A program made the position numbers and the translations under genes. Source: a phage. From it: 64,000 bases of DNA. This document shows positions 14,572 through 63,993 of this stretch, piece by piece (position 1 is the first letter of the stretch; each line of letters starts with the position of its first letter). Under the pieces are notes generated by a model. That model was not told the origin of the DNA. It ran no database searches and saw nothing but the letters and a program-made list of their open reading frames with translations. Where the stretch lies: sequence record PZ445429.1. One strand, given 5' to 3'.

Positions 14572-15186
14572 ATGAGACTACCAGACCCATACACGAACCC
14601 AGAGCTATCAGGGTTAGGTTTTGAAAGCGTTAACTTAGTAGACAATGACCCTATGATTCGTGATGAATTACCTAATGGTAAAGTTAGGGAGGTTAAGGTG
14701 TCTGCTCAATATTGGGGTATTAATATCTCTTATCCAGAATTATTCCCAGATGAATTTGCTAAATTAGACTCATTCATTCTAGATTATAAAAGAACAGGTA
14801 GCTATATTGATGTGTTATTACCACAATATGAAGCTTTTCGAGTTCGTGGTGATACTAGTGCTGTAAATATTCCTGCTGGACAAAAAGGTTCAACAGTTAT
14901 TATGGACACTAAAGGTACACTTCGTGGACTGCCTAAACCAGGCGATTTATTTAAATTGTCCAACCATCCAAAAGTGTACAAAATCACTTCTATCAACATA
15001 GCAGGAAATACTTGGAATATAAGTGTTTATCCTGATCTATTCATTACTACTACGGGTAGTGAGAAACCGGTATTTAATGGTATTCTGTTTAGAACTAAAT
15101 TAATGAACGGAGACAGTTTTGGCTCTACGTTAAATAGTAATGGTACATATACTGGTATTTCACTTTCCTTGAGGGAAAGTCTATGA
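14572..15186 (+). CDS. Distal tail protein Dit (T5 pb9-like, 204 aa)
   Basis: Size identical to T5 pb9; position between tape measure and baseplate hub. Confidence 0.75.
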   Translation: MRLPDPYTNPELSGLGFESVNLVDNDPMIRDELPNGKVREVKVSAQYWGINISYPELFPDEFAKLDSFILDYKRTGSYIDVLLPQYEAFRVRGDTSAVNIPAGQKGSTVIMDTKGTLRGLPKPGDLFKLSNHPKVYKITSINIAGNTWNISVYPDLFITTTGSEKPVFNGILFRTKLMNGDSFGSTLNSNGTYTGISLSLRESL

Positions 15187-18032
15187 AGAAAATTCTTGAC
15201 AGTGCAAGAGAGTATTTAAGAACCAATAATAAAATAAAAACTGCATGCCTTATTACTCTTGAATTGCCAAGCTCTACCGGATCAAGTTCTGCGTACATTT
15301 ATCTTACAGACTATTTTAGGGATGTAATTTATAATGGTATTCTTTACACATCTGGTAAAGTTAAGTCTATAACAACACATAAACAAAATAGAAAACTTTC
15401 CATTGGTAGCCTTTCTTTTACTATCACAGGTACTGCTGAAGATGAAGTATTAAAACTAGTCCAAAATGGTGTATCCTTCCTAGATAGATCCATCTCAATC
15501 CATCAAGCGGTTATTGATGAAGAAGGTAACATTCTTCCTGTAGATCCAGACACTAATGGTCCTTTACTCTACTTCCGTGGTAAAATCACTGGTGGTGGTA
15601 TTAAGGATAACATTGGTACTTCTGGAGTTAGTACATCTGTTATTACATGGAACTGTTCAAACCAATTCTATGACTTTGATAGAGTAAACGGACGTTTCAC
15701 AGATGATGCTGACCATAGGGGACTTGAGATTGTTGCTGGCCAATTAGTTCCATCTAATGGTGCTAAACGACCTGAATATCAAGAGGACTACGGATTCTTC
15801 CACGCTAACAAGAGTATTTCTATTCTTGCTAAGTATCAGGTTCAGGAAGAACGTTATAAGTTACAATCTAAGAAAAAGTTATTTGGTCTTTCTAGAAGCT
15901 ATAGCCTAAAGAAATACTATGAGACTGTAACTAAGGAAGTCGATCTTGATTTTAACTTAGCAGCTAAATTCCTTCCAGTAGTATACGGAGTTCAGAAAAT
16001 TCCTGGAATCCCAGTATTTGCAGATACTGAACTGCATAACCCTAATATCGTATATGTAGTATACGCTTTCTGCGAGGGTGAGATTGATGGATTTCTAGAT
16101 TTCTACTTTGGTGATGTACCAATGATCTGTATTGATCCTAATGATAGTAAGTCTCGTACTTGTTTTGGTACTAAGAAAGTAGCTGGTGATACCATGCAAC
16201 GTATTGCTTCTGGTCAACCAAGCTCTGAACCTTCTGTTCATGGACAGGAATATAAGTATAATGATGGTAATGGCGATATCCGTATCTGGACTTATCATGG
16301 TAAGGCTGATCAATCTGCTGCTGATGTTCTAGTTAACATTGCAAAAGAGAAAGGTTTCTATCTACAGAACATGAATGAGAATGGACCGGAATACTGGGAC
16401 TCTCGTTATAAACTGTTAGATACTGCTTATGCTATCGTTCGCTTTACTATTAATGAAAACAGAACAGAAATTCCAGAAGTTAGTGCTGAAGTTCAAGGTA
16501 AGAAGATTAAGATCTATCATTCAGATGGTAGAGTAACTGCTGATAAGACCAGCTTAAATGGTATATGGCAAACTCTGGACTACCTAACCTCTGATCGCTA
16601 CGGTGCTAATATCACTATCGATCAGTTCCCACTCCAGCAACTTATTCAAGAAGCAGCTATTTTGGATATCATTGATGAATCCTATCAGGTTTCTTGGCAA
16701 CCCTATTGGAGATACGTTGGATGGACTGATGCTGTAGGAGAGAATAGACAAATAGTTCAAATGAACACTATTCTCGATACCTCTGAGTCAGTATTTAAAA
16801 ACGTGCAGGGATTAATAGAGTCTTATGGTGGTGCTATCAACAACTTATCTGGTCAATATAGAATAACTGTTGAGAAGTTCTCAAACACCCCATTAGAGAT
16901 TGACTTCTTAGATACCTATGGTGATCTGGAATTGTCAGATACTACTGGTAGAAATAAATTCAACTCAGTACAAGCCTCTATACTAGATCCTGCATTAAGC
17001 TGGAAAACTAACTCCATTACATTCTTTAACTCTATATTTAAGGAACAAGATAAAGGGTTAGATAAAAAACTTCAACTTTCTTTTGCAAATATCACTAACT
17101 ACTATACTGCGCGTAGCTTTGCAGATAGAGAACTGAAAAAGTCTCGTTACTCACGAACTCTTACTTTCTCGTTACCATATCATTTCATAGGTATTGAGCC
17201 TAACGATCCGATTGCTTTTACATATGGTCGTTATGGTTGGGATAAGAAATACTTCCTAGTTGATGAAGTTGAAAACTCTAGAGAAGGTAAGATTAATATT
17301 ACACTGCAAGAGTATGGTGAGGATGTATTCATTAACTCCGAGCAGGTTGATAATAGTGGTAACGATATCCCTGATGTTAGTAATAACGTACTGCCTCCTA
17401 GAGACTTTATGTATACACCAACACCGGGTGGACAAGTAGGATCTATTGGTAAGAATGGTGAGTTATCTTGGCTTCCTAGCTTAACTAATAACGTTGTTTA
17501 CTACTCCATTGTTCATTCTGGACATGCTGATCCTTACATCGTACAGCAATTAGAAACTAATCCAAATCTACGAATGATCCAAGAAATTATTGGAGAACCT
17601 GCTGGTTTAGCAGTCTTTGAGATTAGAGCTGTAGATATTAATGGTAGACGAAGTTCTCCTGTAACACTATCGGTAGAACTTAACTCTGCTAAAAACTTAA
17701 GCGTCGTTAGTAATTTCAGGGTTACTAATACAGCTTCAGGAGATGCATCGGAGTTTGTAGGACCAGACGTTAAGTTGGCCTGGGATAGAATTCCAGAAGA
17801 AGATATCATTGATGGAATCTTCTACACTCTCGAAATCTACGATAACCTAGATCGTTTATTAAGAAGTGTACGAATTGAAGATCAGTATGTCTACGATTAT
17901 CTACTGATATACAATAAGGCAGACTATGCTCTTCATAACGAGGATGCTCTAGGTATTAATAGGAAGTTACGCTTCCGTATAAGAGCAGAAGGTGATAATG
18001 GCGAGCAATCTGTGGATTGGGCATCTATTTAA
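15183..18032 (+). CDS. Baseplate hub / tail-associated lysin-like protein (T5 pb3-like, 949 aa)
   Basis: Size identical to T5 pb3; start overlaps the Dit stop; conserved order. Confidence 0.75.
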   Translation: MKKILDSAREYLRTNNKIKTACLITLELPSSTGSSSAYIYLTDYFRDVIYNGILYTSGKVKSITTHKQNRKLSIGSLSFTITGTAEDEVLKLVQNGVSFLDRSISIHQAVIDEEGNILPVDPDTNGPLLYFRGKITGGGIKDNIGTSGVSTSVITWNCSNQFYDFDRVNGRFTDDADHRGLEIVAGQLVPSNGAKRPEYQEDYGFFHANKSISILAKYQVQEERYKLQSKKKLFGLSRSYSLKKYYETVTKEVDLDFNLAAKFLPVVYGVQKIPGIPVFADTELHNPNIVYVVYAFCEGEIDGFLDFYFGDVPMICIDPNDSKSRTCFGTKKVAGDTMQRIASGQPSSEPSVHGQEYKYNDGNGDIRIWTYHGKADQSAADVLVNIAKEKGFYLQNMNENGPEYWDSRYKLLDTAYAIVRFTINENRTEIPEVSAEVQGKKIKIYHSDGRVTADKTSLNGIWQTLDYLTSDRYGANITIDQFPLQQLIQEAAILDIIDESYQVSWQPYWRYVGWTDAVGENRQIVQMNTILDTSESVFKNVQGLIESYGGAINNLSGQYRITVEKFSNTPLEIDFLDTYGDLELSDTTGRNKFNSVQASILDPALSWKTNSITFFNSIFKEQDKGLDKKLQLSFANITNYYTARSFADRELKKSRYSRTLTFSLPYHFIGIEPNDPIAFTYGRYGWDKKYFLVDEVENSREGKINITLQEYGEDVFINSEQVDNSGNDIPDVSNNVLPPRDFMYTPTPGGQVGSIGKNGELSWLPSLTNNVVYYSIVHSGHADPYIVQQLETNPNLRMIQEIIGEPAGLAVFEIRAVDINGRRSSPVTLSVELNSAKNLSVVSNFRVTNTASGDASEFVGPDVKLAWDRIPEEDIIDGIFYTLEIYDNLDRLLRSVRIEDQYVYDYLLIYNKADYALHNEDALGINRKLRFRIRAEGDNGEQSVDWASI

Positions 18033-41957: not shown

Positions 41958-41998
41958 TATAAATATTATATATGAAAACTGAGTCGAAAGCAAGTACA
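41958..41998 (-). promoter_or_regulatory. sigma70-type promoter (TTGCTT, 17 nt, TATAAT)
   Basis: On - strand: -35 at 41988-41993, -10 at 41965-41970; conserved leader with GAGAGGA-type RBS. Confidence 0.6.
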
Positions 41999-43123: not shown

Positions 43124-43230
43124 ATTTTTCGATTTCCTTAATTAAGAATTAAACAGAATAGTTCTTTCAAACTATGAGAATATTATATCAAGAATTACAG
43201 GATTAAGCAACTGAAATTTTTCAGTAACTG

Positions 43231-44206: not shown

Positions 44207-44247
44207 TGAATCTATTATACAGAAAAATTTTTCTGAAAGCAAATAAA
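44207..44247 (-). promoter_or_regulatory. sigma70-type promoter (TTGCTT, 17 nt, TATAAT)
   Basis: On - strand: -35 at 44237-44242, -10 at 44214-44219; leader with GAGAGAGGAG RBS before ATG 44182. Confidence 0.6.
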
Positions 44248-51059: not shown

Positions 51060-51096
51060 AAATCAATTATACATAAGTTTTAGCTAGAAAGCAAAT
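51060..51096 (-). promoter_or_regulatory. sigma70-type promoter (TTGCTT, 17 nt, TATAAT)
   Basis: On - strand: -35 at 51089-51094, -10 at 51066-51071. Confidence 0.6.
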
Positions 51097-53253: not shown

Positions 53254-53291
53254 ATTGTAGTTGCTTTCTCCCGTATATATTGGTATAATAT
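53254..53291 (+). promoter_or_regulatory. sigma70-type promoter (TTGCTT, 17 nt, TATAAT) for phoH block
   Basis: -35 at 53261-53266, -10 at 53284-53289; aaaatt upstream element. Confidence 0.6.
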
Positions 53292-54482: not shown

Positions 54483-56813
54483 ATGAGCCATCGCATCGAA
54501 AAAGTAATTAAACGTGACGGTACTGTTCAGGACTTTGCTCCTGAAAAACTCAATGATTGGGCTGCATGGGCATGTAAAGATACTGACGTAAGTTGGTCTG
54601 CCGTAGTTATGGCTGCCCTGAAAAATCTACCCAAAGGTGTTGTAGATTCCGATACACTCCAAGATGTGTTAATTAAAGCTGCTGAAGGTCTTATCAAAGA
54701 CAATCCAGCATATGATACTGTAGCAAAGGAATTACGTCTTGCGCAGATGCGTAAACGCCTCTATGATTCCTTCGAACCACCTTCTCTACGTTTCTTCCAC
54801 GATCATATGGTTCGTGTCGGCGCTTGGGAAGACATGAGTGCATGGATTAGCGATGATCAGTTTGACGCTCTGAACCAAGTTATTGATCATGATCGCGATC
54901 GTTTATTCACCAGTGGTGGACTGAAACAGTTCTTCGACAAGTATTCCCGTCGTAATATTGCAACTGGTGAAATTTATGAAACCCCGCAGTTTGCCTACAT
55001 GGGTATGGCAATGGCGATGCTATCTCAACCTAACTGGACAATTCTCGATGCAATCGACCTCTACAACGCAATGTCACTCCATAAAATCAACGTGCCGACT
55101 CCACCTCTCGTGGGTCTTAGGAGCAGCGACCGCGGTTTTGCTTCTTGTTGTCTTGTTGATAGTACTGATACCCTCGATTCAATCGACACAGCCGAGCACA
55201 TCGTCTTCAAAATGGTCGCAGCCAGAGCGGGAATCGGGTATCATCTTGAAAGCCGATCAATTGCTGATCCGGTGCGAAATGGGGCATTCCCGCATTCCGG
55301 AAAACTGCCATATTATCGACACATTGACCGATCAGTAAAAGCTAACACTCAGCAAACCCGTGGTGGTTCTGCTACTGTGTCTTACCCATACTTCGATCCT
55401 GAAATCATTCAGTTGATGCAGGTTAAGCAGCAACGTGCTACAGACGAGAATAAAATCGATAAGATGGATTACTCTCTGAGCTTTAACAACCTTCTGTTAA
55501 AACGTTACCTGAAAAATGAAGATATTACGCTAATGTCCTACTTCTACGCACCAGAAGTTCATGAAGCGTTTTATGGCGAAGATGAGGCTAAGTTTGAAGA
55601 AATCTACGTGGCAGCGGAGAAACGTGTGGCATCTCTTACAAAGATCGACCACGAAGGAAAAACAATTCCAGCAGCTCCTAGAATCTCTGCAAAAGAAATC
55701 CTAGATACTTGGTTACGTATCCGTATGGAAACAGGGCGTATGTATGCTCATCACATTGGTGAATCTAACCGTCATGGTAACTTCCTTGACCCGATTCGTA
55801 TGACCAACCTTTGTGTTGAAATTACTCAGCCAACCCGTCCATTCCATCACATTACGGAGCTGTATAAGACCCAAGATCAGTTAGACGATATGCGTCCAGA
55901 AGATATTGGTGAAGTATCTCTGTGTAACTTAGGTGGTGTTGTACTAGGTCGTATGGAATCTCTGGCTGAATGGGAGAAAACTTGCTACATTCTTCTGAAA
56001 TTCGTTGATACAATCATCGAGATTCAGGATTACCCATTCCCAACTATGGAGTACACGGCTAAGAAACGTCGTAACGTTGGTATTGGTCTGATGAACGCAG
56101 CAGGTGCAATGGCAGCAGAAGGTTTGGCTTACGAAGGTGTTGAAGCCCGTAACTGGATTCACCGTGAAGCTGAAAAGCTGTCCTACTTCCTACATAAAGC
56201 CTCTGTACGTCTGGCTAAAGAACAAGGTGCATGTGACTGGTTTAATCGTACTAAGCCTTCGCAAGGAACTCTGGTAATCGACACGTACAAGAAAACTGTT
56301 GATGAACTGGTAACTGTAGGTCTAGAAATGGATTGGGAATCTCTGCGTGCAGATATTCTGAAATATGGTATGCGCAACTCTGTTCTGACTGCTCAGATGC
56401 CAGGTGAAAGTTCCTCTGTACTGCTAGGTGTTACTAACTCTATCGAACCGCCCCGTAAGATCGTATCTATCAAGGGTAGTGCAGTGAATAAAGTAATTGC
56501 AATTGCTCCAGGTGCAACTGATTGGGATACATTAATGAGCTATAAACTGGCTTATGATGTAGATCGTATCGAGTGGATCAAATGGGTAGCAACCATGCAG
56601 AAATTCTTCAGCCAGTCTATCAGTACGAATATGTACTATGACTACACCAAGTTCGAGAATGAAATCATTCCCGGCCCAGTAGTAGTTCGTGACTTTATGA
56701 CTGCTGTTAAGTACGGTTGGAAAACTTGGTACTACGCTAACTTCAACACTGAAAATGGTGGTGGAGCTGGTGAAGAAGCAGCAGGTTGTGCATCAGGTGG
56801 TTGTAACCTATAA
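54483..56813 (+). CDS. nrdA: Ribonucleoside-diphosphate reductase, alpha subunit
   Basis: N-terminal ATP-cone (VIKRDGTVQDF...LNDWAAWA); class I RNR large-subunit active-site region; start chosen at MSHRIEK after AAAGGA RBS (ORF track starts 54423). Confidence 0.9.
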   Translation: MSHRIEKVIKRDGTVQDFAPEKLNDWAAWACKDTDVSWSAVVMAALKNLPKGVVDSDTLQDVLIKAAEGLIKDNPAYDTVAKELRLAQMRKRLYDSFEPPSLRFFHDHMVRVGAWEDMSAWISDDQFDALNQVIDHDRDRLFTSGGLKQFFDKYSRRNIATGEIYETPQFAYMGMAMAMLSQPNWTILDAIDLYNAMSLHKINVPTPPLVGLRSSDRGFASCCLVDSTDTLDSIDTAEHIVFKMVAARAGIGYHLESRSIADPVRNGAFPHSGKLPYYRHIDRSVKANTQQTRGGSATVSYPYFDPEIIQLMQVKQQRATDENKIDKMDYSLSFNNLLLKRYLKNEDITLMSYFYAPEVHEAFYGEDEAKFEEIYVAAEKRVASLTKIDHEGKTIPAAPRISAKEILDTWLRIRMETGRMYAHHIGESNRHGNFLDPIRMTNLCVEITQPTRPFHHITELYKTQDQLDDMRPEDIGEVSLCNLGGVVLGRMESLAEWEKTCYILLKFVDTIIEIQDYPFPTMEYTAKKRRNVGIGLMNAAGAMAAEGLAYEGVEARNWIHREAEKLSYFLHKASVRLAKEQGACDWFNRTKPSQGTLVIDTYKKTVDELVTVGLEMDWESLRADILKYGMRNSVLTAQMPGESSSVLLGVTNSIEPPRKIVSIKGSAVNKVIAIAPGATDWDTLMSYKLAYDVDRIEWIKWVATMQKFFSQSISTNMYYDYTKFENEIIPGPVVVRDFMTAVKYGWKTWYYANFNTENGGGAGEEAAGCASGGCNL

Positions 56814-56822
56814 TAAAAACAA

Positions 56823-56850
56823 GGAGATCTTCGGGTCTCCTTTTTTCTTT
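56823..56850 (+). terminator. Rho-independent terminator after nrdA
   Basis: Hairpin ggagatc-ttcg-ggtctcc followed by TTTTTTCTTT. Confidence 0.75.
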
Positions 56851-56854
56851 GAAA

Positions 56855-56891
56855 TTTTACTTGCTAATCGCTACCAGATTTGCTATAATAT
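56855..56891 (+). promoter_or_regulatory. sigma70-type promoter (TTGCTA, 17 nt, TATAAT) upstream of HNH and nrdB
   Basis: -35 at 56861-56866, -10 at 56884-56889; aaatttt upstream. Confidence 0.65.
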
Positions 56892-56913
56892 CTCTATATT
56901 AAGGAGATATACT

Positions 56914-57432
56914 GTGAAACCTCAACTAACAAAAGAATTTCTAGAGAAATATCTAGAACTCAGAGAAGATACTCTCTATTGGAAGCCAAGAGAGACTAAT
57001 AAAGGTGGATTTAATACTAGATTTGCTGGAAAACCTGTAGGAGCCGTCAATGGAAATGGCTACCTATGCTTCCGACTTAACGTGGAAGGTTATAGATGGG
57101 AATTAAGAAATCATGTAGTAATCTTCTGTCTCTATTATGGATATTACCCAACTAAGACAGTAGACCATAAAGATACAAATAAACTTAATAACCATCCTTT
57201 AAATCTACGAGAATCAACCGATGCTGGTAATGCCCAAAATAGGGGAGCCGGTAAAAACAATACCCATGGACATAAAAACCTAGAGCCTCTTAGTTCAGGA
57301 AACTGGAGGGTTAGGATAACACACAACGGTACTGTTTACAGATCTTCCGCAATGCCTCTAGAAAAAGCTCTAGAACATAGAGATATTAAACTTAAAGAAT
57401 TTCATGGCGAATACGCTAATAATGGAGAATAA
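56914..57432 (+). CDS. HNH homing endonuclease with AP2-like domain, inserted between nrdA and nrdB
   Basis: HNH region (VDHKDTNKLNNHPLNLRESTDAGNAQN) plus AP2-like (GNWRVRITHNGTVYRS...LEKALEHRD); AAGGAG RBS then GTG at 56914. The ORF-track ATG at 56755 lies inside nrdA and the terminator and is rejected. Confidence 0.7.
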   Translation: MKPQLTKEFLEKYLELREDTLYWKPRETNKGGFNTRFAGKPVGAVNGNGYLCFRLNVEGYRWELRNHVVIFCLYYGYYPTKTVDHKDTNKLNNHPLNLRESTDAGNAQNRGAGKNNTHGHKNLEPLSSGNWRVRITHNGTVYRSSAMPLEKALEHRDIKLKEFHGEYANNGE

Positions 57433-59965: not shown

Positions 59966-60319
59966 ATGTTAATTATACTATTATTTGTCATATTCTTTCT
60001 AAAACATTTTATGGCCGATTATCCACTCCAAACACCATATATGCTAAGAAAGACGCATAAAATAGGGTGGAAACTTCCATTATTAACCCATTCGCTAGTA
60101 CATGCTGGATTAACATTTGCAATTCTAATCCTATTCACATCACCAGGAATGTCTATAGCTTTAGCTATTATGGAATTAATTCTACACTTTATTATAGATT
60201 ATTGGAAAGCACAACGCTGTAAATACGCTATAAGCGATGCTAAGTTTTGGATAGCTTTAGGATTTGATCAGTTACTGCATTATCTGACATACGCCCTAAT
60301 AATCTTGATTATAATCTAA
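59966..60319 (+). CDS. Hypothetical integral membrane protein (117 aa)
   Basis: Three to four hydrophobic helices (LIILLFVIFFL, LTFAILILF, IALAIMELILHFII, ALIILIII). Confidence 0.5.
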   Translation: MLIILLFVIFFLKHFMADYPLQTPYMLRKTHKIGWKLPLLTHSLVHAGLTFAILILFTSPGMSIALAIMELILHFIIDYWKAQRCKYAISDAKFWIALGFDQLLHYLTYALIILIII

Positions 60320-60323
60320 TTCA

Positions 60324-60350
60324 AATAGCCCTTCGGGGCTATTATATTTA
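60324..60350 (+). terminator. Rho-independent terminator
   Basis: Hairpin atagccc-ttcg-gggctat followed by T-rich run. Confidence 0.6.
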
Positions 60351-60352
60351 AA

Positions 60353-60389
60353 TTTCATTTGCTTACTGAGTGAAATTCAAATATAATAT
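60353..60389 (+). promoter_or_regulatory. sigma70-type promoter (TTGCTT, 17 nt, TATAAT)
   Basis: -35 at 60359-60364, -10 at 60382-60387. Confidence 0.6.
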
Positions 60390-60417
60390 ACTTCTAATTT
60401 GACAGAAGGATTTAATA

Positions 60418-60996
60418 ATGACAGCCATAGTAGCATTTAAATATAAAGATAAAGTATACTTAGCTGGTGATCGTATGGGTTCTAATGGCTATACGAAACT
60501 GCTGGTTAAAAATCCGAAAGTATTCAAAATCTCTGATGATTTGTACTTCGGATACACTAGTTCCTTCTACATGGGACAATTACTAGAGCATAGCTTTACT
60601 GTACCACCACGTTTAGCAGATATTTCTGATGATAAATATTTATATACGGAAATAGTACCTAAATTACGTGATATGTTTAACCAGAAAGATTTTGGCGAAA
60701 AGAAAAATGAAAAATATGCTGAACCTAATCTGGGACAATTTATTATGCTCTACAAAGGAAGAATCTTTATTTTCCAATCTAATGCTTCTATTCTAGAAGT
60801 TGAATATGCCGGTGTAGGCTGTGGAGGAGAAGATGTACTTTCCAGTATTCGTACAGGTTTAGCTATTGCGGATTGTCGAGCCACAGATTTAGATGTAGAT
60901 GATATATTTGAAATCATTGATCTGGCTTTTACGCATTGTGCAGATTATATGTGTGGTGTATCTTCTCAACATGATGTTTTAGTAATTGGAGAATAA
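60418..60996 (+). CDS. HslV/proteasome-beta-like Ntn-hydrolase (192 aa)
   Basis: N-terminus MTAIVAFKYKDKVYLAGDRMGSNG parallels HslV [23 protein letters not shown] (Thr directly after initiator Met); later GVGCGGEDV aligns with the HslV GSGG segment. Confidence 0.55.
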   Translation: MTAIVAFKYKDKVYLAGDRMGSNGYTKLLVKNPKVFKISDDLYFGYTSSFYMGQLLEHSFTVPPRLADISDDKYLYTEIVPKLRDMFNQKDFGEKKNEKYAEPNLGQFIMLYKGRIFIFQSNASILEVEYAGVGCGGEDVLSSIRTGLAIADCRATDLDVDDIFEIIDLAFTHCADYMCGVSSQHDVLVIGE

Positions 60997-60998
60997 AT

Positions 60999-61268
60999 AT
61001 GTCTATTCTTTTATCTGCTTTAGAAGCAAAACAAAATACTATTGCTAGCATTAAAAAGGAAGTAATTGACCTAGAATCACTTATTGCCGTAGAGATTGAC
61101 AAAGCTATTAAAGATAAAGAATTTAATTGTCACATCCAGGGATTAACTGAATACTCAGAAAACGCTAGAAATAGCGTCATGCAAAAACTTAGCAAACTAG
61201 GTTATGTTGTAGAAGCTAAGTATGAACAGCGTGAAGGTTTTTGGCTTGAAATTGATTGGAGCAAATAA
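60999..61268 (+). CDS. Hypothetical protein (89 aa)
   Basis: Small coiled-coil-like ORF, overlaps start of RNase H gene. Confidence 0.45.
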   Translation: MSILLSALEAKQNTIASIKKEVIDLESLIAVEIDKAIKDKEFNCHIQGLTEYSENARNSVMQKLSKLGYVVEAKYEQREGFWLEIDWSK

Positions 61269-61758: not shown

Positions 61759-61795
61759 ATTCACTTGCTTAAAGCCCTCGAATTTAGTATAATAT
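61759..61795 (+). promoter_or_regulatory. sigma70-type promoter (TTGCTT, 17 nt, TATAAT)
   Basis: -35 at 61765-61770, -10 at 61788-61793; aaaaattcac upstream; GAGGAGG RBS downstream. Confidence 0.65.
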
Positions 61796-62182: not shown

Positions 62183-62698
62183 ATGGCTAAGCAGAAAAAC
62201 GCAAAAACTCAGGCAGCTCCGGCAGTTAAAACTTTCGCTCAGACCGAAGCCAATCGTAAGGCTCGTCTGGAACGTCATCTGCGTAAGCATCCTACTGATG
62301 CTCAGGCTCAGACTGCCCTGAAGTCTGCGGCTCCGGTTCGCCAGAAGCCGAAGGCCAAGAACTCTACTCGCGCAACTGCTAAGCAGGTTGTGTTCATCAA
62401 GGGTGAAGGTCATAAGTCTGTACCGGTAACTCTGAGCTTTAACGGCGGTGCTGAGATGTTCGCCCGCAACGGTATGGCTCTGAAAGACTACGAAAAAGCA
62501 GTCAATCAGAAGCGTAAGCCAATGGCTGACGTAATGCGTGAATCCCGTGGACAGTTTGGCTCCGTTAAACCGAATATTTTCGGTGTAGAGTATAGCCGTG
62601 ACAACGTTCGCGCTCTGTGCTACGGTATCGGTATTAAGTTTACTGGTGCTTCTGATCGTAAATCCGCTAAACCTACTCGTAAGCGTAAAGCGAAGTAA
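62183..62698 (+). CDS. Hypothetical highly basic protein with host-optimised codon usage (171 aa)
   Basis: Lys/Arg/Ala-rich; codon usage biased to ctg/cgt/ccg/gct, unlike AT-rich neighbours. Confidence 0.55.
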   Translation: MAKQKNAKTQAAPAVKTFAQTEANRKARLERHLRKHPTDAQAQTALKSAAPVRQKPKAKNSTRATAKQVVFIKGEGHKSVPVTLSFNGGAEMFARNGMALKDYEKAVNQKRKPMADVMRESRGQFGSVKPNIFGVEYSRDNVRALCYGIGIKFTGASDRKSAKPTRKRKAK

Positions 62699-63259: not shown

Positions 63260-63961
63260 ATGAAATTCAAGCCCTTTGGTATGCTGGACATTGAATCTCT
63301 AGGTACTCCAGGAAATTGCGGTACTACTCATATTGCAATGCCTTCTTTCGCTTTTGTAGCGATGCACGGAATTGATAAAGATCCTGATCTGGTATTCGTT
63401 ACTCTAGACGTTCAAGATCAGCTTAATGCGGGTGCTAAGGTAACTGCCTCTACTATTGCATTCTGGATGGATCAAGCTAAAAACAGTCCATCTGCGCTCC
63501 ATATTATGGAGGCTCTAAATGGTCGTAATCCTAAACTGATTGCCTTCCGTGATGGTAAGCATCACTGCACTAATGACGTAGGCTCTAATTATGCTGCCTT
63601 CTCTATGGCTCAGAACATTATGGAATTGTCTCTAGGAGATAATGCTCTGTATTACGGCAATGGCCCAGAGTTTGATATGACAATCTACTCTGCAAATACG
63701 TTCCATGCCGGAACCCATGAAGAAATAGTTCCGTGGAAATTCTGGAACTTAGGTAACGTTCGATCTTTCCGTAATCAGTGGATGCAAGCTGGTTATAGCT
63801 ATAAAGATCTAGAAGCCGAAGGTGCTAGCTGGGCAAAAGCTAAAATGGAAAAGATGGACACCATTCGTTATGGAATCTATCCTGTGAAGCATGATCCAGC
63901 ATTCGATGCTTTAGTTGAAAGTTATTGTGTAGCCGTCATGATCGAAAAAATCAAAATTTGA
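63260..63961 (+). CDS. Hypothetical protein, possible DEDD-type exonuclease-like (233 aa)
   Basis: N-terminal LDIESLGT resembles DEDD motif I and C-terminal HDPAFDA resembles motif III; motif II is not clear, so the assignment is weak. Confidence 0.35.
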   Translation: MKFKPFGMLDIESLGTPGNCGTTHIAMPSFAFVAMHGIDKDPDLVFVTLDVQDQLNAGAKVTASTIAFWMDQAKNSPSALHIMEALNGRNPKLIAFRDGKHHCTNDVGSNYAAFSMAQNIMELSLGDNALYYGNGPEFDMTIYSANTFHAGTHEEIVPWKFWNLGNVRSFRNQWMQAGYSYKDLEAEGASWAKAKMEKMDTIRYGIYPVKHDPAFDALVESYCVAVMIEKIKI

Positions 63962-63993
63962 TTTGCTTTCAGCTCCAAAATTCTGTATAATAT
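63957..63993 (+). promoter_or_regulatory. sigma70-type promoter (TTGCTT, 17 nt, TATAAT)
   Basis: -35 at 63963-63968, -10 at 63986-63991; at the window edge. Confidence 0.55.

Follow-up and report, generated by a model that had tools for sequence, protein, structure and literature searches.

Phage-borne homologues of the proteasome were described in 2021 by Fuchs, Alva and Lupas (Fuchs et al. 2021, PMC8665760) and have been catalogued, but never characterised. The described systems closest to the protein considered here are two groups of that survey, AAH and PPH, together with HslV (ClpQ), the peptidase of the bacterial HslUV protease (PDB 1m4y, 1g3i, 1e94), the Betaproteobacteria proteasome homologue BPH (PDB 5ovs, 5ovu) and the beta subunits of the 20S proteasome. 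We analysed a gene that encodes such a homologue on the plus strand of a 64,000-nucleotide stretch of phage DNA (record PZ445429.1; hereafter the window). Its product is a protein of 192 residues, which begins with MTAIVAFKYKDKVYLAGDRMGSNG and contains the motif GVGCGGEDV, as read from the translated open reading frame (ORF). This much is already known from the sequence, as the gene is named in RefSeq and GenBank and its family forms a PHROG. The RefSeq name is 'peptidase HslV family' (BOX13_gp099), and other depositors have used 'proteasome subunit-like protein', 'HslV family peptidase' or 'protease', with most entries labelled 'hypothetical'. The sequence finding adds nothing to the existing annotation.

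We regard it as next to certain that the protein is an N-terminal nucleophile (Ntn) threonine hydrolase of the proteasome family (MEROPS T1). On balance, and with a good deal less assurance, we favour the view that it is an active Thr1 Ntn peptidase, which would assemble into rings and work with no dedicated unfoldase. This reading builds on the family, the fold, the catalytic residues, the lack of a partner ATPase, the promoter and the accessory status of the gene, all of which were observed; the removal of the initiator Met, the rings, the proteolysis, the independence from an unfoldase and the substrates are steps that we infer.

Family, fold and active site

60418-60996, plus strand: gene for the 192-residue proteasome-like (T1 family) Ntn threonine hydrolase, from ATG to TAA, stop codon included

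The protein matched the Pfam Proteasome profile (PF00227) with 38.5 bits against a gathering cut-off of 22.4 (E 1.2e-9), and the match runs from end to end, with protein residues 2-189 lying on positions 5-188 of the 189 in the profile. A further match was obtained to PHROG 1040, 'peptidase HslV family' (E 1.9e-21). We also built a profile from 18 homologues and compared it with the PDB, where the matches at E up to about 0.1 were only to HslV, BPH and the beta subunits of bacterial, archaeal and eukaryotic 20S proteasomes, the best being HslV of T. maritima (1m4y, E 4.9e-6). Profile searching placed the protein in the proteasome family and in no other. A PADLOC scan for defence systems returned nothing for the peptidase protein.

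The same 18-homologue alignment was used for AlphaFold2, which gave a confident model with a predicted local distance difference test score (pLDDT) of 89.7 and a predicted template modelling score (pTM) of 0.87. The predicted structure is an alpha-beta-beta-alpha Ntn sandwich in which two pairs of helices flank the sheets. The elements follow the order of the proteasome fold, with strands, helices H1 (residues 50-59) and H2 (71-89), further strands, helices H3 (137-153) and H4 (160-177) and a terminal strand. In a Foldseek search of the PDB all 50 of the top matches listed were to HslV, BPH or 20S proteasome subunits with a probability of 1.00, and the best TM-score was 0.70, to BPH from Cupriavidus. 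The initial annotation had described the product as an HslV-like or proteasome-beta-like Ntn hydrolase. Both the profiles and the proteasome-type Ntn fold obtained by structure prediction agree with the proteasome family; the specific likeness to HslV did not hold.

The active site was examined in two sets of aligned relatives, one of 18 and one of 40, the latter sharing 27-74 % identity with the window protein. The following features carry the site:

60421-60423, plus strand: codon of Thr2 (Thr1 after Met removal), presumptive N-terminal nucleophile, invariant in the 18 and the 40 relatives
60469-60471, plus strand: codon of Asp18, equivalent to proteasome Asp17, invariant, in an 'aGD' motif aligned to HslV and PrcB
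60517-60519, plus strand: codon of Lys34, equivalent to proteasome Lys33, invariant, in 'pKvFk' aligned to HslV 'rKVrk'
60550-60585, plus strand: family signature G45-Y-T-S-S-F-Y-M-G-Q-L-L, which holds the oxyanion-equivalent Gly and the start of helix H1
60817-60825, plus strand: G134-C135-G136, the proteasome/HslV G-S-G loop with the Ser129 position, aligned to GSG of HslV and PrcB

A hidden Markov model (HMM) alignment places residues 2-49 on residues 1-49 of T. maritima HslV, consistent with the N-terminal parallel to HslV noted in the initial annotation, and in the family profile alignment Thr2 lines up with Thr1 of HslV and of M. tuberculosis PrcB. The Thr directly after the initiator Met had been put forward as the presumptive nucleophile; it proved invariant across the relatives, along with the equivalents of Asp17, Lys33 and the oxyanion glycine. 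The residues invariant in all 40 relatives are T2, D18, K34, G45, S49, F50, G106, G134 and G136, and within the signature region T47, M52, G53, Q54 and L56 are at least 90 % conserved. In the proteasome mechanism the glycine of the oxyanion hole is Gly47, with which G45 lines up here (PMC8665760). The suggested correspondence of GVGCGGEDV to the HslV GSGG loop was also recovered, with the HMM aligning 'yagvGcGgedvl' to HslV 'aaiGsGgpyal', although the loop residue is Cys and not Ser. The relatives usually have Cys or Ser at this position, 135; Ile and Ala are rare there. We suggest that Asp18 and Lys34 would complete the catalytic triad and that Cys135 would occupy the site of the Ser which positions the Thr amino group in other members of the family.

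An orphan peptidase-like subunit in a virulent phage, with Cys in place of the conserved Ser of the G-S-G loop, might also be a decoy whose catalysis is irrelevant and which binds or blocks host HslU or HslV to inhibit host proteolysis. We consider this highly improbable. Thr1, Asp17 and Lys33 are strictly conserved among thousands of relatives, including those from bacteria that lack HslUV, and a mere binder would not be expected to retain them; Ser and Cys, moreover, interchange at position 135 within the family. Conservation of the catalytic residues therefore speaks for an enzyme capable of catalysis rather than for a decoy.

The protein has no propeptide, as the Thr directly follows the start codon. 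In the bacterial relatives Thr likewise stands straight after an ATG, GTG or TTG start in 25 of the 25 N-termini inspected. Methionine aminopeptidase takes off Met before Thr. In BPH the removal of Met ahead of Thr was confirmed by mass spectrometry (PMC5777263). It is therefore to be expected from this analogy, under the reading of an active peptidase, that the host methionine aminopeptidase would take off Met1 and expose the Thr nucleophile, in which case propeptide cleavage would be unneeded.

Relation to HslV, BPH and the 20S proteasome

The protein is not an HslV orthologue. HslV, BPH and the 20S beta subunits all lie at much the same distance from it, and its own clade is a separate, large one with many phage members. 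An NCBIfam scan at E up to 1 found no HslV equivalog model and returned only sub-threshold 20S beta models and one unrelated match; against the bacterial and archaeal 20S beta equivalogs the protein scored 14.7 and 12.6 bits, where the cut-offs are 191.9 and 224. It further differs from the 20S proteasome in that it lacks a propeptide and the C-terminal helix H5 and is not paired with an alpha subunit. One feature of the model is of particular use in the comparison:

60685-60738, plus strand: long loop KDFGEKKNEKYAEPNLGQ, residues 90-107, between H2 and the next strand, at the 'pore loop' position of the model

This loop spans 18 residues with a net charge of 0, counted from the sequence, and is bounded in the model by the end of H2 at residue 89 and the start of the following strand at 108. 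HslV has merely a short linker at this place (PMC5777263), whereas BPH, which has no unfoldase, carries an elongated pore loop, so that the phage protein resembles BPH in this respect (PMC5777263; PMC8665760). As proposed for BPH, the loop may help in the selection of substrates.

Within the proteasome homologues catalogued by Fuchs, Alva and Lupas the protein probably belongs to the AAH group. By the published criteria (PMC8665760) the model has the compact architecture of group I, with helices H1-H4, no propeptide and no S12/H5 extension, and the distribution is also similar, with members in Actinobacteria and alphaproteobacteria and many phage copies. PPH, which is likewise a phage-borne group I proteasome homologue, was rejected, since PPH proteins have about 140 residues and lack H2 (Fuchs et al. 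2021), whereas the protein here is 192 residues long and its H2 is modelled with high confidence at 71-89.

The family is large, with 6,704 cluster representatives at 50 % identity for E up to 1e-3 and 836 for E up to 1e-30. Of the 150 family matches listed, nearly all begin at residue 1 and have about 180-190 residues, and the length is about 180-186 residues in all of 160 viral and bacterial relatives. Searching with the pattern G[YF]T[STD]SF[RY]M identified relatives in 389 viral contigs and in the genomes of 418 bacterial species. The best 80 of these 418 bacterial carriers are mostly Streptomyces, Azospirillum, Mesorhizobium, Devosia and Rhizobium; others include further actinobacteria, Polyangiaceae, Paraburkholderia and a few Bacillales. 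PHROG 1040 detected 40 of 40 sampled members and Pfam only 9 of the 40 at E up to 1e-3. In a viral structure library 26 clusters proved to be related at E up to 1e-3, and two of these already bear the names 'HslV ... peptidase subunit' and 'Proteasome beta type-2 subunit'.

The annotation around the peptidase gene shows no AAA+ unfoldase. The absence of an adjacent HslU-like ATPase, remarked on in the initial annotation, was borne out, the neighbours being genes for thymidylate synthase, a DUF3307 membrane protein, an 89-residue ORF product and RNase H. Nor is an unfoldase annotated in 107 kb of the 114-kb genome of a close relative, Salmonella phage 118970_sal2, which is 97-98 % identical to the window and served as a proxy for whole-genome content. 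The ORFs called at 160 related loci were then grouped by an all-against-all BLAST comparison, and no ATPase emerged as a conserved neighbour. The genes that did recur were those for portal, HK97 prohead protease and terminase in temperate phages; in some lytic phages PhoH-like genes recurred. One large neighbour 'cluster' was rejected as an artefact of antisense ORFs in high-GC genomes.

These observations bear on the question of whether HslV-like rings of the phage protein could dock on host HslU, or on ClpX or ClpA, and so redirect ATP-dependent proteolysis during infection. The hosts, Salmonella and E. coli, possess HslU, no phage-encoded unfoldase was seen in the local annotation or in the 107 kb of the close relative, and the best PDB profile match is to an HslV (1m4y). 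Parasitism of host ATPases would also suit an orphan ClpP-like subunit in the close relative and a ClpP-like gene in phage 121Q. Against this, the family is common in Actinobacteria, which lack the HslV/HslU system (PMC8665760, Table 1), so that dependence on HslU is unlikely as its general mode. In the HslV of E. coli and H. influenzae the pocket for the C-terminal tail of HslU is formed by Phe54, Phe57, Gln114 and Lys80 (PMC6429459); a reliable residue-level alignment of the phage protein to E. coli HslV reached only position 41. We judge capture of a host unfoldase to be unlikely here, and pairing with host HslU less likely than action independent of HslU.

The favoured reading is that the protein acts as a peptidase with no unfoldase of its own. 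By analogy with BPH and HslV the subunit probably forms stacked homo-oligomeric rings with the active sites inside, and with no AAA+ unfoldase dedicated to it would probably cleave peptides, or else proteins that are unfolded or specifically recognised. Several points weigh against it. BPH bound epoxomicin yet cleaved no model substrates in vitro (PMC5777263), so that the term 'protease' is unproven even for the closest unfoldase-free relative. The Cys in place of the conserved Ser129 equivalent is unusual. The conserved SF(R/Y)MGQLL segment, which has no counterpart in HslV or the proteasome, may point to a different substrate or partner. The AAH label draws only on distribution and taxonomy, length and architecture, and not on the published reference WP_035979212. 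Finally, our literature searches found no experimental study of any member of the clade, only genome notes and the 2021 survey.

Some of the same evidence would suit a specialised, non-degradative Ntn enzyme, such as a site-specific processing peptidase, an amidase or a ligase (compare connectase, of the same superfamily), which would act on one particular substrate of host or phage and possibly form no closed chamber. The family motif GYTxSF(R/Y)MGQLL sits at the rim of the active site, no unfoldase partner is conserved at the 160 family loci, BPH showed no bulk proteolysis in vitro (PMC5777263), and several of the newer homologues may adopt assemblies other than rings (Fuchs et al. 2021, PMC8665760). 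The much weaker similarity to connectase counts against it. We consider such a specialised role an alternative with a real, if minor, claim.

In about six lytic phage lineages a P-loop ATPase of the PhoH-like type is encoded no more than 6 kb from the homologue, and at two of the surveyed loci, L032 and L043, it is directly adjacent. Its coordinates are 1110-1895 at L004, 4288-5073 at L171, 6310-7588 at L005 and 14839-15591 at L173, and it is also present at L007, L009-L013 and L025. This proximity may reflect only shared early-gene modules.

In some Aeromonas and Vibrio phages a further, divergent Ntn or 'HslV family' gene lies directly downstream of the orthologue and encodes either 294-295 residues with a C-terminal extension or 114 residues. 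Counting also a tandem duplicate on one contig, such second genes are at L004 4570-5454, L006 4145-4489, L171 6568-7455 and L069 5454-5999. The shorter paralogue is possibly of the PPH/RPC kind, judging from its sequence, and the presence of two copies hints at hetero-oligomeric assemblies in those phages. As a general partner a second Ntn subunit was rejected. It was not found in the window by tblastn with the Aeromonas/Vibrio paralogue, and among the 160 loci two copies occur only in the Aeromonas/Vibrio phage lineage and in one contig with a tandem duplicate.

ClpP-like genes were seen in two phages. In 118970_sal2 (NC_031933.1 21960-22559, locus L167, outside the window) there is an orphan ClpP-like 'ATP-dependent protease' subunit of 199 residues with no Clp ATPase. 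In the jumbo phage 121Q a ClpP-like gene (L005 2565-3173) lies two genes upstream of the proteasome-like gene, with a Sir2-like gene just downstream; these T5-like phages, for their part, have two Sir2-like genes at a distance of about 10 kb. It is conceivable, though in our view distinctly doubtful, that the protein is a weapon of counter-defence or host takeover. Perhaps in concert with the orphan ClpP-like subunit, it would then exploit a host ring ATPase or the PhoH-like ATPase so as to eliminate particular host proteins, for instance immune effectors, at an early stage of infection. If so, it would be the first functionally defined viral protease of the proteasome family.

Should the protein prove to be an active peptidase that needs no unfoldase and has defined targets, this would give a function to several thousand sequence clusters in phages, Streptomyces and alphaproteobacteria. 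Proteolysis by such an enzyme would also join the means by which phages are known to take over their hosts or to counter defences. Both carriers of the gene and phages that lack it are abundant among the T5-like phages and are genetically tractable, which makes them a convenient system.

Genomic setting and expression

The 3.5 kb around the peptidase gene are 100 % identical to two Salmonella phages, 118970_sal2 and 100268_sal2. Both are T5-like siphoviruses of the genus Epseptimavirus (Demerecviridae). The gene lies between thy and rnh, in the order thy, DUF3307 membrane protein gene, hairpin, promoter, peptidase gene, orf89 and rnh. The elements of this slot, other than the peptidase gene itself, are:

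59966-60319, plus strand: gene for the DUF3307 membrane protein (PF11750, 46.4 bits), a second accessory gene in the thy-rnh slot
60324-60343, plus strand: hairpin AATAGCCC-TTCG-GGGCTATT followed by an A/T-rich tract, read from the sequence
60359-60387, plus strand: promoter TTGCTT-N17-TATAAT, its 3' end 30 nt before the peptidase ATG
60406-60410, plus strand: putative Shine-Dalgarno-like AAGGA, read from the sequence, 7 nt before the ATG
60999-61268, plus strand: 89-residue ORF (orf89), which starts 2 nt past the peptidase stop and is probably co-transcribed

In T5 the order is thy, an annotated promoter and rnh, with the peptidase gene absent, and in DT57C td is followed directly by rnhA. 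A tblastn search found no homologue of the peptidase in a 20-kb stretch of T5. Positions 60320-60417 of the window are homologous to the thy-rnh intergenic region of T5, and both the hairpin and the promoter are shared. The peptidase gene is thus dispensable accessory cargo placed between the thy-rnh promoter and rnh. Copies at 90 % identity or more occur in about 124 phage records, out of 441 that share the surrounding region, and in Epseptimavirus 1-19 a different small ORF replaces the peptidase gene while orf89 is retained.

Absence from T5 and from many T5-like phages is what one might expect of a chance ORF or of a decaying remnant without function. The gene, however, encodes a full-length domain with a significant profile match, and has its own promoter and Shine-Dalgarno sequence. 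More than 100 phage records carry it with 99-100 % conservation, and the family numbers thousands of cluster representatives. The domain match, the expression signals and the conservation refute this explanation, to which we give practically no weight.

The promoter belongs to a class that stands out in the window, where a motif search found 8 exact copies of TTGCTT-N17-TATAAT against 0.03 expected, all co-oriented with the local genes. On the minus strand they lie at 41965-41993, 43182-43210, 44214-44242 and 51066-51094, and on the plus strand at 53261-53289, 60359-60387, 61765-61793 and 63963-63991, the strand changing from minus to plus between 51 and 53 kb. Among them, the one at 44214, TTGCTTTCAGAAAAATTTTTCTGTATAAT, closely resembles the classic strong T5 promoter PN25. 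A generic sigma-70 promoter scan of the window did not detect any of this class; it missed the peptidase promoter because TTGCTT agrees with TTGACA at just 3 of 6 positions. Since the motif is overrepresented and the region is homologous to the annotated T5 promoter, the peptidase gene and orf89 lie behind a real phage promoter and in front of rnh, and are presumably expressed with the nucleotide-metabolism genes. Transcription from this T5-type promoter would join the peptidase gene, orf89 and the RNase H gene in one unit within the nucleotide-metabolism block. The hairpin is a possible terminator of the upstream thy/DUF3307 transcript, although a strict terminator scan did not call it.

If the gene is an active peptidase carried as accessory cargo, its benefit would probably be conditional because it is dispensable, for example through the removal of particular host proteins or the recycling of peptides.

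Other genes of the region

No Pfam or NCBIfam family was found for orf89, and its PADLOC matches were weak only (AbiEii, E 0.0095) and probably due to chance. T5 and DT57C lack the ORF. Since phage 1-19 retains it without the peptidase gene, it is no dedicated partner of the peptidase. Neither T5 nor DT57C nor phage 1-19 has the DUF3307 gene, which in the window precedes the hairpin and the promoter.

Over its whole length the window is 95-98 % identical to 118970_sal2 (NC_031933) except for one short, more divergent stretch. An ORF resembling an HNH-type homing endonuclease lies between nrdA and nrdB at 56755-57432 on the plus strand. It is absent from 118970_sal2, relative to which (NC_031933) the window has an insertion at about 56892-57426, and its position is the site of hegH in T5, a putative H-N-H endonuclease. 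Because this insertion differs, the window comes from a close relative of 118970_sal2 and not from that phage itself.

Downstream of the slot, the gene at 62183-62698 on the plus strand matched DUF7022 with 266 bits. The gene at 63260-63961, also on the plus strand, matched an Rv2179c-like 3'-5' exoribonuclease domain (31.9 bits) and carries the RefSeq label 'exonuclease'.
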